A stretch of 64,000 bases of DNA from a virus, in the IMG/VR virus record IMGVR_UViG_3300046171_000314, positions 64,001 through 128,000 of that record. One strand, written 5' to 3'. The translations under genes were made by a program, and so were the position numbers. Every line of letters begins with the position of its first letter. Within the stretch, counting starts at the first letter, position 1. Below, one piece after another: positions 1,301 through 54,293 of this stretch. The notes below the pieces were generated by a model, which saw nothing but the letters and a program-made list of their open reading frames with translations, was not told where the DNA came from and searched no databases.

Positions 1301-2077
1301 TCAACTAACTAGGGCATGTCTTAGTTTATCTATTTCACGAAAAATGATTTTTCTCACCGCCTCTCTCGATAAAGAAAATTGTTGTGCAATTTTGTTCAAA
1401 GATTGAGGGGTTTCGCCTGTCAATCCGAAACGCTTTTTTATAATCTCTTGGTGTCTTTGATTGCTTAGTTTATCCAATGCCTCAAGCAGCAACCTTTTTT
1501 CTTCCTCTTCTAAGGTGTGGGATAAAGGATCTTGCACCTGATGATCGACAATAATATCTTTCAGCAGGAAATCTTCTGAGAGGGGTGTCTCTAAAGAGGT
1601 AGGTGGGGGTGGGATGAGGGATATTTGGTCATAATGTTTCTTAGAAATGGCTGTCATTGCCAAACAATCTTCTAAGGAAAACCCTTGTTTAATCATTGCT
1701 TCTATTTGTGAGCAGTGCTTCATTTGCTCTTTTCGATATTCAGGGATAGCAATCAAGTCCGAGTGACACCTCCTCATTGCTTGCTTAATCCACCAAGTTG
1801 CATAGGTTGAGAACCGAAAACCCTTTTCAGGGTCATACTTTTTTGTTGCAATCATCAAGCCGATGTTCCCCTCTTGGATGAGATCCTCAAGAGGGCTTGG
1901 GTTTCTCTTCACTTCTTTTTGAGCAAGAGAAACCACCAAACGGAGGTTTGAAACAATCATTTTCTCAAAGGATCTGACACACCCTTTCTGTATTTTTGTG
2001 CCAAGTTCTAACTCTTCTTTTGCAGACAAGAGTTTGTGGTTCTTCAGTGATTCTAAATACGAGTCAATATCATTCAT
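1301..2077 (-). CDS. phage-encoded RNA polymerase sigma factor, RpoD/SigA-like family lacking region 1.1
   Basis: Region 1.2 YLESLKNHKLLSAKEE; region 2 NLRLVVSLA, DLIQEGNIGL, KYDPEKGFRFSTYATWWIKQA; region 3 SLETP; region 4 HTH IAQQFSLSREAVRKI. Confidence 0.93.
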   Translation of the reverse strand: MNDIDSYLESLKNHKLLSAKEELELGTKIQKGCVRSFEKMIVSNLRLVVSLAQKEVKRNPSPLEDLIQEGNIGLMIATKKYDPEKGFRFSTYATWWIKQAMRRCHSDLIAIPEYRKEQMKHCSQIEAMIKQGFSLEDCLAMTAISKKHYDQISLIPPPPTSLETPLSEDFLLKDIIVDHQVQDPLSHTLEEEEKRLLLEALDKLSNQRHQEIIKKRFGLTGETPQSLNKIAQQFSLSREAVRKIIFREIDKLRHALVS

Positions 2078-6012: not shown

Positions 6013-6028
6013 AATAATTTGCCTATAA
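6013..6028 (+). promoter_or_regulatory. class A (late-like) putative promoter RATAAT-N4-CTATAW
   Basis: AATAAT-TTGC-CTATAA about 30 nt upstream of start. Confidence 0.55.
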
Positions 6029-9861: not shown

Positions 9862-10215
9862 TCAATCTCCTTTACAGAGCAACCATTGATGTAATTTGTT
9901 TTCCCATTCATCTGAGAGTGTTCCTTTGAAGGGGGGTTGCCCCATATCTTCTTTTCTATAATTAAAGATCAAGTTCCGAAGCCTCCAAATGTTCGGAGGA
10001 ACTCGACAAGAGTGTTCTACTCTTCTATAAGGAGTACCCTTAAAGAAGCACAGAACTAATAAATGATGCCTCGCTTCAAATTTTGCTTCATTCAGTTTCG
10101 TCTGAAACCTTGACTTGAATCTGCTCTTCTTGTGGGTTTTCCTAATGATCCTACAAATGTGCTCAAACTTCTTTATTTCTAAGCGTAGTAACTCAAATTG
10201 AAGCCTATTCATCAT
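9862..10215 (-). CDS. basic hypothetical protein
   Basis: Coupled to HU gene. Confidence 0.6.
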   Translation of the reverse strand: MMNRLQFELLRLEIKKFEHICRIIRKTHKKSRFKSRFQTKLNEAKFEARHHLLVLCFFKGTPYRRVEHSCRVPPNIWRLRNLIFNYRKEDMGQPPFKGTLSDEWENKLHQWLLCKGD

Positions 10216-10492
10216 CTTCTTTGTTCAACTCTTGCTTAAGTTTCTTGCCACATTTGAAGGTAGCAATTGTCCTATCAGGAATCTTCAAAGGTTCGTTGGT
10301 TCTTGGATCTACCCCATCAAAGCCTTTTCTATCAGAAACATTGAATGTTCCAAAATCCGATAAAGTGACTTTATCCCCCTCAACAAGAGATTTCTGTATC
10401 TCTTCTAAAAAGGAATTGATCAGAAGGGTCAGTTCTTTCCTTGTTTTTCCGTGCTTCTTTGCCATCGCAGCAATAATTCTAGTCTTATTCAT
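10205..10492 (-). CDS. hup: HU/IHF-family DNA-binding protein
   Basis: MNKTRII...GDKVTLSDFGTF...GVDPRTNEPLKIP...FKCGKKLK. Confidence 0.92.
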   Translation of the reverse strand: MNKTRIIAAMAKKHGKTRKELTLLINSFLEEIQKSLVEGDKVTLSDFGTFNVSDRKGFDGVDPRTNEPLKIPDRTIATFKCGKKLKQELNKEDDE

Positions 10493-10597
10493 ATTCTCTC
10501 CGACTATCACTTCTACGGAAAAACATTGAAAGAATAACGAGATTTCAATTGAGAAAGAAAAAATCGCTATCTGTCTTCTGTGGTATAGTGTATTTAT

Positions 10598-11070
10598 TGG
10601 GGTTAAGAATCGAGTTCTTGATTAGTTTCCTCTTGAGGAATTTTCTGTCTTTGTGCTGTTCAATTTTATATGTGTAATTGCTGTTATATTTTTCTTAGTT
10701 TCTATGGCAGTTTTACTTTTGGTAGTTTTATTTTTGGATAGTGTAGGTGGGTCTTTCAAGAGGGACTTAAATAAATTCAATTCTTAACCCTATATTTATT
10801 AAGATTGAATTCTTACATCTACATAAAGAAACAAAGGATAGGAATCCAATTCGATAGTCCTTTATGTTCTGTAAGTATTTAAACATCACCTGTGTAGATC
10901 CTTCCCTTTGGTTATTCAAACCAAGTATGAATCTTTGATGGCTCATACTTGGTAGGGGAGGCAGGTGAGTCTTCTTATTCAGAATAAGACGAAGTGTTCT
11001 TTATTCGAGATCAAGCGGTAACTCTCTCAATCAAGAATTAATCTTGTTGCCAAGATCGAACTTCTCGTAC
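10598..11070 (+). ncRNA. candidate structured non-coding RNA (unassigned)
   Basis: ORF-poor interval with successive nested stems, many G-U compatible on + strand; TGGTATAGT promoter-like motif at 10581-10589. Confidence 0.45.
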
Positions 11071-11326
11071 CAACGGTCAGTTGTAAAAATCAAAGAACGA
11101 GGCTTTTGGGGGCTTTCGTTTTAATCCCTAACCCCTCAGGAAATATGAAGATATTGATCGACACATCTTCTGATGCTTCTTTTCTGATGAGAATCTTTTG
11201 GGTATCGAAGCCATAGGGTTTCTCAATAGATCGGAGAACACAAGGAAAAAGCATTTTGATTGTATAGTAAAAATCCAATTCCTGCAATAATTTTTCAATA
11301 AGCATAGAAGGGTAAAAGGAGAACTT

Positions 11327-11662
11327 GTGCCGAAGATAGCAAACCCATTGACAGGTGAAGAAGCCGAAAAAATATTATCCTCTTATGTGATCGATCTCTT
11401 GATGGGGAAGGGTTTAGTGTCTTTCCCCCTATCTTCTATCGGAACTCCTTCTCCTGTTGTGTTGGTTAAGGGAACGCACTCTTCGATTTACGTAGATCGA
11501 GATCAGTGGCAGACTTGTGTCCGACCTATCTTAGAAGATGAATCCTATAAAATATTAAAAACCCCAAAAGGTCGTGAGTTGACAAGAGGGCATGGGTATC
11601 ACCGTTGGCAAGATTTGATAGGAAAAGCCTTGAGAAAGAAGTTCAATTCAAACGGCTACTAG
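11327..11662 (+). CDS. hypothetical protein
   Basis: GTG start with AAGGAG RBS. Confidence 0.6.
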   Translation: MPKIANPLTGEEAEKILSSYVIDLLMGKGLVSFPLSSIGTPSPVVLVKGTHSSIYVDRDQWQTCVRPILEDESYKILKTPKGRELTRGHGYHRWQDLIGKALRKKFNSNGY

Positions 11663-11705: not shown

Positions 11706-11861
11706 ATGAAAGATATTATTGTTTGGGTGGCTTGCAGAGCCACAACTAAGTGTGAGGGTCAGCGAGCCAAGCAGGTACGACACATTAAAACAGAAGGTGG
11801 TGGTCACATCACCCATTACAGATGCTTAACTTGCAATAAAAAGTTTGTGGTGCGAGTATGA
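11706..11861 (+). CDS. small zinc-ribbon protein (51 aa)
   Basis: Not in track: MKDIIVWVACRATTKC...YRCLTCNKKFVVRV; ATGA overlap with next gene; TTCGGTATT motif at 11669. Confidence 0.65.
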   Translation: MKDIIVWVACRATTKCEGQRAKQVRHIKTEGGGHITHYRCLTCNKKFVVRV

Positions 11862-47444: not shown

Positions 47445-47783
47445 ATGTCTAATTTAAGAAGCAAAATCATTCGACTTGCTCACGCAAAACCTGAGTTGCG
47501 AAAGCACTTACTACCTCTTGTCACTAATAAAAAGGCTTACAAAGACCCTTGTAATGGAGGTTCTTACTTCGGTGATAGTTATGACGAGACTATGGTAGGT
47601 CTTGAAGAATGTCACGATGAAAAAATTAATGAAAAAAAAGTCGACGATGCTTTTGAATTACTCACAATATTAAGTAACGAAGATGATTTTGAATTTCCAA
47701 ATGGAATGGAAACAGTAAGTTTGAAATTTCGTCTTAATCGGGCAGAGTCTGAATTCGTGAAGTGGCATTACGACAACGTATAA
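47445..47783 (+). CDS. leader-bearing putative virion cargo protein 3
   Basis: MSNLRSKIIRLAHAKPELRKHLLPLVTNKKA leader then acidic domain. Confidence 0.75.
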   Translation: MSNLRSKIIRLAHAKPELRKHLLPLVTNKKAYKDPCNGGSYFGDSYDETMVGLEECHDEKINEKKVDDAFELLTILSNEDDFEFPNGMETVSLKFRLNRAESEFVKWHYDNV

Positions 47784-52890: not shown

Positions 52891-54293
52891 TGGCTTTTAT
52901 GAAATATGCCTCTGCTCTCTTAATGTCCCCTAGTATTTCTCAAAGGGGTTGGAAAAAGGTTCGAACTGCTTCCATGAAAGCAGGCGGAAATCTTGTTCAT
53001 CAAGCCGAGAACATTTTTGGTCAAAAGTTTGATCCGAGTAAGTACTTATTGTCTCATTGTACGATAGTGGCTTCTGTTGATGTTGATGAAGTCTCCAATG
53101 TTAAAATGGGGTCTGTTCAAGAAGGTGGTAAGACAATTAATCGCAAGTATAGCGATTACTATATTACTCCCCAAACCTCTAAGTATGTAAATAACAATGG
53201 GGATTCTTGGTCAAGAGAAGTTCTTATGAAGTCTTACAAAACCTTTATAGGTTCTCATAACTTTCAAGAACATGTACAAATAGAAGACCTGTCAAAGGGT
53301 CGCATTATTGATGCAGTTGCTCGTGATGTTGGTGAGAGTATTTATATTGATATTCTTGTGGCTACGGATCGACAACACACACAATTAGTAGAGGACATAG
53401 AGAGTGGCAAAATGGCTACTCTTTCTATGGGATGTACTGTCGAAGCAACCATTTGCTCTCAATGTGGAAATGTTGCAGTAGATGAAACCGATATGTGTGA
53501 TCATATTAAATATGCCAAACTAAACAAGTTCTTTGACAAGAGCGGTAATCAAAGGGTTATTGCAGAACTTTGTGGTCACCCTGAGATGGGTGATACAGGC
53601 GGTGTTCATTTTATAGAAGCCTCTTGGGTTGCTGTTCCTGCTTTTACAGGTGCGGTAATGAGAAATATTTTGACACCTGAGCAAGTTAGTGCAGAAGTCA
53701 AAAAGAAGGCTACTGAGATTCTTTCTGTTCCTCCGAGTGAGTGGGTCAATCCTGAGGGCAATCAAAAGGTTGCTCGTGATGTATATGCTCGTGGAATGTT
53801 TGATGACGATGACGATGATGATGGCGGTGGCGGAGATGCCTCTCCAATTAAAGAGTTGGAAGATGAAATGGTTCAAGTGGTTAAGAAGAGAGTTCTTGAT
53901 CGATTGAAAACCGAAATGAATCCTCCAAAGGAAGAAGCAGAAAAAGATGCCCCAAAGACAGAAGATGCTACCACGTATCAAAATGATACGATAGTCAAAG
54001 AGGCTATGCGTAAAGGTGCATTGGAAGGTCTTGTAAAGATTTCCTCCTCTTCGGTGGAATTGGTTGATGGTATTGCTAGGCTCGATAGAGCGAACGGTGA
54101 GCCATTTGCAATAGATTTGTATCGTGCCTCTCTTAGAGTAGGTTCGACCACAAATTACCCTTCTTTGAGATCCTTTTTGGCACAATGTCATAAAGTGTTG
54201 AGAAGAAGATTTACTTCACAAGAAGCAAAAAAATTGGTTCGCCTTGCTAAACTCATAGAAATATGGGAGAAGCGGAGCAACTTTCAATCTTAA
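52890..54293 (+). CDS. prohead (maturation) protease
   Basis: NNNGDSW...SYKTFIG..NF.EH, GRIIDAV, LSMGC (catalytic Ser), FIEASWV..PAF; lies upstream of scaffold and MCP. Confidence 0.8.
   Translation: MAFMKYASALLMSPSISQRGWKKVRTASMKAGGNLVHQAENIFGQKFDPSKYLLSHCTIVASVDVDEVSNVKMGSVQEGGKTINRKYSDYYITPQTSKYVNNNGDSWSREVLMKSYKTFIGSHNFQEHVQIEDLSKGRIIDAVARDVGESIYIDILVATDRQHTQLVEDIESGKMATLSMGCTVEATICSQCGNVAVDETDMCDHIKYAKLNKFFDKSGNQRVIAELCGHPEMGDTGGVHFIEASWVAVPAFTGAVMRNILTPEQVSAEVKKKATEILSVPPSEWVNPEGNQKVARDVYARGMFDDDDDDDGGGGDASPIKELEDEMVQVVKKRVLDRLKTEMNPPKEEAEKDAPKTEDATTYQNDTIVKEAMRKGALEGLVKISSSSVELVDGIARLDRANGEPFAIDLYRASLRVGSTTNYPSLRSFLAQCHKVLRRRFTSQEAKKLVRLAKLIEIWEKRSNFQS

Follow-up and report, generated by a model that had tools for sequence, protein, structure and literature searches.

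Genomic context of the element

The window, by which is meant the whole stretch of 64,000 nucleotides analysed here, corresponds to bases 64001–128000 of a 147,878-base IMG/VR virus record that CheckV estimates to be 56% complete. The source is a very large uncultured phage, whose relatives come from marine metagenomes. The element considered here sits in an 834-bp spacer bordered on the left by a leftward gene of the HU family and on the right by a rightward replication block, in which ORF111 and ORF51 are followed by two clamp-loader subunits, a ribonucleotide reductase (RNR) and a RecD2-type helicase (Table 1). For the ORF111 product, a structure model (pLDDT 82.5) gave no fold match, the best Foldseek hit having an E value of 0.5 and the best VIA hit a Z of 4.2. 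The phage also encodes a σ70-family protein at window positions 1301–2077, which bears out the supposition of the original prediction that this is a phage with its own σ factor.

Five relatives are syntenic with the window and fall into two groups: group A, formed by L010 from sample Ga0181590 and L011 from sample Ga0213866, with 64–66% identity to the window in the clamp loader, and group B, formed by L008, L009 and L012, with 45–46%. The order ORF117-HU / element / ORF111-ORF51-clamp loader is common to all five, and two other loci, L015 and L007, are not syntenic with the window. A metagenome scan found six loci, L010–L013 among them, and the closest clamp-loader relatives in a protein search (P0001–P0004 and P0007) show 63–92% identity. 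Scans of IMG/VR with the HU and clamp-loader proteins yielded no further homologs, and neither did DNA-pattern scans of the same resource, in one of which 23 matches were due to chance except for two known relatives. No homolog was gained from the GTDB genomes scanned, and the phage genome databases held no DNA match to the element. The evidence base is therefore thin, comprising three clear homologs only, namely those of the window, L010 and L011. As for the small genes of the cluster, ORF51 is 75–83% identical in L010 and L011, about 55% identical in group B and still 39% identical in the distant L015, which makes it the most widely kept among them.

Table 1. Positions of the element, its parts and its neighbours in the window.
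Feature	Position	Strand	Remarks
HU-family gene	10205–10492	−	Pfam Bac_DNA_binding, E 4e-26; ATG at 10492
Conserved box CATTGAAAGAATAACGA	10521–10537	−	Between the HU start and the RNA promoter; 16/17 bases (94%) identical in L010, L011, L008, L009 and L012
Predicted extended -10 promoter TGGTATAGT (TG-n-TATAGT), without -35 element	10581–10589	+	From motif recurrence and conserved position
5′ arm of basal (closing) helix	10598–10616	+	Pairs with 10774–10792
U-rich interior	10617–10773	+	About 47% U and 10% C; only the window copy is rod-like
Small 5′ hairpin UUCCU-CUUG-AGGAA	10627–10640	+	Aligned by covariance model; both sides changed in 2 of the 3 pairs modelled
3′ arm of basal helix	10774–10792	+	Pairs with 10598–10616
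U-rich tail UAUAUUUAUU	10793–10802	+	Directly past the basal helix; possible weak termination point
Following structured region	10801–11010		Two hairpin domains plus hairpin and UGUUCUU at 10970–11005; z -3.8 (+), -4.4 (−)
ORF111	11327–11662	+	First gene of the rightward block
51-aa ORF (ORF51), zinc-ribbon-like	11706–11861	+	CxxxC...CxxC; directly before the clamp loader

Folding of the window copy

When folded as + strand RNA, positions 10591–10800 reach -55.5 kcal/mol, compared with -35.8 ± 3.3 kcal/mol for 200 dinucleotide shuffles, none of which was as good (z = -5.98). The + strand fold thus lies far beyond chance. The − strand RNA reaches only -31.9 kcal/mol (z = -4.9), and when DNA parameters are used, significance is lost (z = -1.75). 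The hairpin is thus confirmed, and all of the pairings originally proposed for it (10598–10616 with 10774–10792, 10627–10638 with 10754–10765, 10652–10663 with 10734–10745, and a further inner stem) recur in the minimum free energy (MFE) structure of the + strand. In that structure the basal helix is made up of pairs 10598–10610/10780–10792 and 10612–10616/10774–10778, and it is continued inwards by pairs of about 10624–10638 with about 10754–10768, by 10655–10663/10734–10742 and by an apical 9-bp stem. Inverted repeats of this kind are rare in the window, where only 15 with arms of at least 15 nt lying within 300 nt of each other were counted, the element being one of them. The sequence TATTTAT does flank the hairpin on both sides, at 10591–10597 and 10793–10799.

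A predominance of G·U pairs on the + strand had been taken as a sign of selection on a + strand transcript. In the window fold, 17 of the 66 pairs are G·U when read on the + strand and 2 when read on the −, and the homologs each have 13–17 on the + strand and 0–2 on the −. Since the + strand of the window element contains 47% T and 20% G, a composition that itself favours G·U, this excess is only consistent with a + strand RNA and is not proof of it. Nevertheless, selection on the + strand is supported when the orientation of promoter and terminator, the dependence on G·U pairs and the one-sided changes in the homologs are considered together, because these changes give G·U on the + strand but C·A on the −.

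Conservation of the basal helix and of the small hairpin

L010 and L011 each have a homolog of the element at the corresponding position; in both it has a contiguous basal helix of 17–20 bp and folds well as a whole (z = -4.0 in L010 and -5.5 in L011). By BLAST, the hairpins of these two relatives are not alignable to that of the window. A covariance model built from L010 and L011 alone nevertheless recovers the window copy end to end, at 10593–10803, with 26.7 bits and an E value of about 0.002, and this is the best non-self match of the model in 112 kb. As a MAFFT-based RNAalifold analysis misplaced the window sequence, the covariance-model alignment was used instead, and the pair counts that follow come from three sequences in an alignment fitted to that model. 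In this alignment the 20-pair basal helix is 98% paired, and pairing has been kept through four double-sided and four one-sided changes; when the partners are slid by 1–3 columns as a control, pairing falls to 36–55%. All four one-sided changes turn a G-C or A-U pair into G·U on the + strand, and would be C·A in DNA or in a − strand RNA. The search for homologs and covariation called for by the original prediction has thus yielded two relatives with the element and a non-coding structure kept by compensatory change.

Besides the basal helix, a small hairpin in the 5′ part of the interior is conserved and covaries as well, its counterparts being GUUCU-CGUG-AGAAC in L010, UCCC-CUCA-GGGA in L011 and UUCCUU-CCCA-AAGGAA in L008 and L012; in the window MFE structure, the same segment pairs with 10754–10765 instead. 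Between L010 and L011 only, a segment in the 3′ part of the interior is conserved as well. Group B still has the conserved box, a TATAAT, a high content of U and an 11-bp closing stem that is weak and bulged. Its fold is not significant (z = 0.0), the model from L010 and L011 misses it (E = 0.8), and L012 has an uncompensated change in the closing stem, so that, as judged from sequence, group B is a probable diverged homolog. The family is defined by the helix that joins the two ends, by the small 5′ hairpin and by its richness in U.

The interior varies far more. All copies contain 44–50% T and 10–14% C, and the window interior ties for the lowest-GC stretch of 200 nt in the record. Folded without the basal stem, it is modestly structured in the window (z = -2.85), and in L010 and L011 it does not exceed chance (z about -1.2); the continuous rod is therefore a trait of the window copy. 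Over the element, from the hairpin through the terminator, L010 and L011 are 68% identical, compared with 79% in the HU gene, and their indels (6, 1 and 1 nt) and differences are concentrated in the interior.

Predicted promoter, transcription start and 3′ end

The promoter-like motif noticed just upstream of the hairpin is indeed present, 8 nt before the stem, and has the form of an extended -10 element. The same -10 box is found in the window, L010 and L011 (GGTATAAT/TGGTATAGT), with GGGTATAAT occupying in both relatives the position of the window TGGTATAGT. The record contains 12 copies of the motif GGTATA[AG]T, and about six of those other than the copy at the element are intergenic, 17–62 nt ahead of a ribosome-binding site (RBS) and ATG; TGGTATAGTGT occurs five times, compared with about 0.07 expected. 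By its recurrence and placement, the GGTATA motif qualifies as a real promoter class in this phage, and the element would accordingly have a promoter of its own in the right orientation. The motif predicts that transcription starts at about A10596, which is 7 nt past the -10 hexamer and lies on the A of a conserved ATTGG; the corresponding positions are A2089 in L010 and A2082 in L011, and in all three copies the predicted start is two bases 5′ of the stem. A second phage promoter class is seen in the bipartite motif RATAAT-N4-YTATA, of which the whole record has about 24 mostly intergenic copies, where roughly 2–4 would be expected by estimate; examples lie at window positions 6013, 24637, 35779, 48208 and 57222.

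At the 3′ end the copies differ. A terminator scanner detected no canonical terminator after the hairpin of the window, where the basal helix is followed by the U-rich tail only, and the transcript could therefore continue. In L010 and L011, U-rich sequence past the helix is succeeded by strong intrinsic terminators on the + strand (L010 2288–2316, L011 2288–2314), which begin 13–15 nt past the helix and have stems of 11 and 10 bp and T-rich tails of up to T8. As for ORF111, it is preceded in the window by a promoter-like TGTATAGT at 11261–11268, 59 nt before the gene, and in L013 a TATAGAAT, read by eye, lies just ahead of its homolog.

Taken together, we consider this a real, conserved phage RNA element of a new family, which is probably transcribed; its transcription, start, end and role are what we infer from the sequences. 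Most likely, it is a small non-coding RNA gene not described before, carried by a giant marine phage that has not been cultured and consisting of a promoter and a U-rich RNA of about 200 bases whose ends are paired in a 20-bp stem. To the more specific statement that the gene stands alone and belongs to a family absent from Rfam we would give an even chance. It is favoured by the strong terminators that follow in two of the three copies (L010 and L011) and by the promoter-like TGTATAGT that ORF111 has for itself in the window.

Competing interpretations

The main rival, which we regard as somewhat unlikely, takes the element as the 5′ leader of the replication operon, with one promoter driving ORF111, ORF51, the clamp loader and the RNR. 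The hairpin would then be a 5′ stabiliser or a cis-acting RNA, such as an attenuator or a put-like element for processive antitermination, and the terminator of the relatives would be read through conditionally. The missing canonical terminator behind the window hairpin fits this proposal, as does the layout of L010 and L011 (promoter, structured RNA, terminator, long operon), in which the hairpin promoter is the sole GGTATAA-type site upstream of the replication genes. It is also favoured by conserved non-coding sequence of about 330 nt that runs on to ORF111, and by a purine-rich segment lying about 100 nt downstream in these two relatives (L010 2365–2393, L011 2372–2408), which over 29–37 nt is 76–83% complementary to the 3′ arm and linker, would allow alternative pairing and has no clear counterpart in the window. 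Against it stand the strength of the two terminators, the promoter-like sequences before ORF111 in the window and before its homolog in L013, and an interior that evolves too fast for a precise fold binding RNA polymerase (RNAP). Moreover, a terminator-like site on the − strand between the hairpin and ORF111 in L010 and L011 suggests separate transcription units. A role at the level of DNA is a smaller concern and an unlikely one: the spacer would contain an AT-rich unwinding region or origin, or inverted protein-binding sites, between HU and the replication genes, and the RNA fold would be incidental. The divergent junction beside these genes and the very low GC content of the interior agree with this, and so does the architecture of the T4 and T7 origins, which combine a promoter with an AT-rich region. 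What makes it unlikely is that the DNA fold is not significant, that the one-sided changes in the homologs would all be C·A mismatches in DNA, and that GC skew has no minimum here, the search for an origin of replication by GC skew having given no signal. In addition, a cruciform does not easily extrude from arms that are separated by about 160 nt, and a U-rich RNA would presumably make weak R-loops.

The original prediction had itself offered two explanations, neither of which has held. According to one of them, the RNA would be a 6S-like decoy that mimics open promoter DNA and sequesters the host σ70 RNA polymerase while the phage σ factors take over. At about 190–195 nt the element is indeed of the size of 6S RNA (~180–200 nt; RF00013 and related families), its 5′ and 3′ ends meet in a closing stem, and the phage, which encodes at least one σ70-family protein, would be reprogramming transcription with its own σ factor(s). 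However, a search with the Rfam covariance models gave no match at the gathering score in the 64-kb window, none at E values up to 10 in window positions 10400–11400 and none at E values up to 1 in L010, L011 and L008, so that neither 6S nor any other Rfam model matches a copy at these thresholds. Furthermore, the window fold is a near-continuous rod with small loops and without a large central bubble, and the interiors of the relatives are branched and not beyond chance, which means that the architecture of a bubble between two helices is not conserved. Trapping the holoenzyme would presumably also trap the core enzyme that the phage σ factors need, and a literature search found phage small RNAs but no phage-encoded 6S. 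The 6S reading is thus unsupported, and we hold it to be improbable. The other explanation, a miniature inverted-repeat transposable element (MITE) or similar mobile insertion, bounded by terminal inverted repeats and flanked by a 7-bp target-site duplication, is refuted and keeps a next to negligible probability. It drew on the inverted terminal arms and on the TATTTAT found on both sides in the window. Yet the flank is not duplicated in the relatives, where it reads TATCTAT/TATTCTT in L010 and TATCTAT/TATTTCT in L011, and the 5′ TATTTAT/TATCTAT is a conserved spacer between the -10 box and the stem. The 148-kb record, itself about 56% complete, has one full-length copy, and phage collections have none. 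No empty sites exist among the syntenic relatives, and the diverged copies that occupy the identical site in all five point to vertical inheritance. Similarities of the 5′ arm to window positions 53879–53900 and record positions 47476–47499 (22–24 nt, E about 0.01) were judged to be due to chance.

Finally, the transcript might be the mRNA of a small hydrophobic peptide of the type I toxin or holin-like kind, with pairing between its 5′ and 3′ parts controlling translation, a possibility that is largely refuted and very improbable. The ORF in question, at 10653–10787, would encode 44 aa that read as one transmembrane helix with a charged tail; a 3-nt indel between L008 and L012 preserves the frames, and hok-type toxin mRNAs typically have end-to-end pairing. 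The ORF is not conserved in L010 and L011, however, as stop codons interrupt every + frame in both and none of their start codons would yield a peptide longer than about 14 aa, and the indels between them (given above) include two of a single nucleotide. In the window the ORF would begin with GTG, 13 nt from the nearest GAGGA. Besides, T-rich sequence encodes hydrophobic residues in any frame, so that a peptide-like appearance is expected from composition. Further kinds of RNA were considered and rejected. Among the Rfam families, pRNA, GOLLD, ROOL, HEARO and ribozymes gave no matches any more than 6S did. A retron (msr-msd) or DGR RNA was discarded likewise, the record having no RVT_1 match, the neighbours being HU and ORF111, and no second copy being present as a variable repeat.

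Possible function and known analogues

For the small RNA gene, the following course of events may be envisaged. Transcription from the phage-type extended -10 promoter would begin two bases before the basal helix of 19–20 bp, which would pair the ends of the RNA and thereby close off an interior of ~150 nt that is U-rich, C-poor and loosely structured, with one small conserved hairpin. The 3′ end would lie at the U-rich tract past the helix in the window, or at the canonical terminator 13–15 nt further on in the relatives, giving a product of about 205–240 nt. The end-to-end helix of ~20 bp could shield the termini from exonucleases and from 5′-end-dependent decay and so stabilise the RNA; alternatively, it could be a stalk for processing by RNase III, of the kind found at the flanks of rRNAs. 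The interior, which evolves fast, might bind protein, acting as a sponge or decoy for a host or phage protein that recognises U-rich or structured RNA. Constraint on the interior bears on its composition more than on its sequence, which suits such a sponge or decoy better than a sequence-specific antisense RNA. A helix for stability or processing combined with a protein-binding interior is the mechanism that we consider most likely. In its boldest form, to which we attach a rather low probability, the RNA would be a phage decoy comparable to 6S or adenovirus VA RNA, i.e., a stable, stem-closed RNA of a new family that neutralises a host protein and is made alongside phage σ-dependent genes. 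Candidate targets would include the RNAP holoenzyme, RNases, chaperones and RNA-sensing proteins of anti-phage defence. No Hfq, double-stranded RNA-binding domain (dsRBD) or RNase III is encoded in the 148-kb record, so that any processing by RNase III would need the host enzyme.

Several known systems resemble the element in part. RNase III stalks, such as those of the 16S and 23S rRNA flanks and the T7 early-mRNA sites, likewise have a contiguous helix of ~20 bp, the length needed by RNase III, formed by distant segments that enclose a long interior. Unlike in those cases, the RNA enclosed here is only about 150 nt long and poorly conserved. Adenovirus VA RNA I, the EBERs of EBV and the Y RNAs are abundant, protein-binding RNAs of 100–170 nt with a terminal stem and a U-rich tail; as they belong to eukaryotic systems, the likeness is architectural only. 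The put RNAs of HK022 are structured, lie close to the promoter and precede a terminator and a long operon, which is also the layout of L010 and L011, but they measure about 70 nt and have two precisely conserved stem-loops, whereas the interior of the element is variable and three times longer. Phage-encoded small RNAs are also known, for instance PreS/LPR1 of lambda (bioRxiv 10.1101/2024.10.31.621285) and the intergenic ncRNAs of PhiKZ (PMC8545117). Like these, the element would produce a short intergenic ncRNA from its own promoter (with a terminator in the relatives) in a lytic-phage genome, but the predicted RNA is longer, has a 20-bp end-to-end helix, shares no sequence or Rfam relationship with them and has no evident base-pairing target.

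Giant uncultured phages are known almost wholly from their protein genes, and few of their ncRNAs have been described. Against this background, the element provides a concrete candidate with defined limits, for which promoter, start and structure are predicted, as is a terminator in the relatives, and which can be tested in metatranscriptomes. It adjoins the HU and replication genes of a phage with a multi-σ transcription programme. Should it prove to be a decoy that binds protein, bacterial viruses would have an equivalent of the viral decoy RNAs; as no more than a leader or stable by-product, it would be ordinary. The analysis has removed the two more exciting readings: the element is not mobile, and no 6S features were detected in it.

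Sequences flanking the element

The DNA around the hairpin holds further features on either side. Downstream, the region 10801–11010 is structured on both strands, so that a strand cannot be assigned to it, and it would be part of the transcript only upon read-through. In L010 and L011 its last hairpin (10970–11005) is matched by one whose stem differs in sequence, read by eye as ATCTCTC-TTTC-GAGAGAT. Within the same region, a conserved terminator-like hairpin on the − strand followed by TTTGTTTGTTC is found at about 10826–10850 in the window, at 2449–2464 in L010 and at 2453–2466 in L011, and may mark where an unannotated transcript running leftward ends, between ORF111 and the hairpin. Further on, a stretch of approximately 330 nt ahead of ORF111, from 11000 to 11326, shows 78% conservation with L010 and L011, more than the hairpin itself. 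It is non-coding, as indel lengths do not keep to multiples of three and every frame is interrupted by stops in the window and in L011, and it shows no RNA structure on either strand (z = +0.8 and +0.3); conservation without structure was likewise noted for the block 11005–11300 inside it. This segment may hold regulatory or DNA-binding sites, or an origin.

On the other side, the box CATTGAAAGAATAACGA stands out in the five syntenic relatives from flanking DNA that has diverged, and is probably the promoter or 5′ untranslated region (UTR) of HU and not a part of the RNA. An inverted repeat of 20 nt, 90% complementary between its arms at 10433–10452 and 10515–10534, brackets the start codon of HU and overlaps this box; on the HU mRNA, it would enclose the RBS and ATG in a 62-nt loop and could serve in the translational control of HU.
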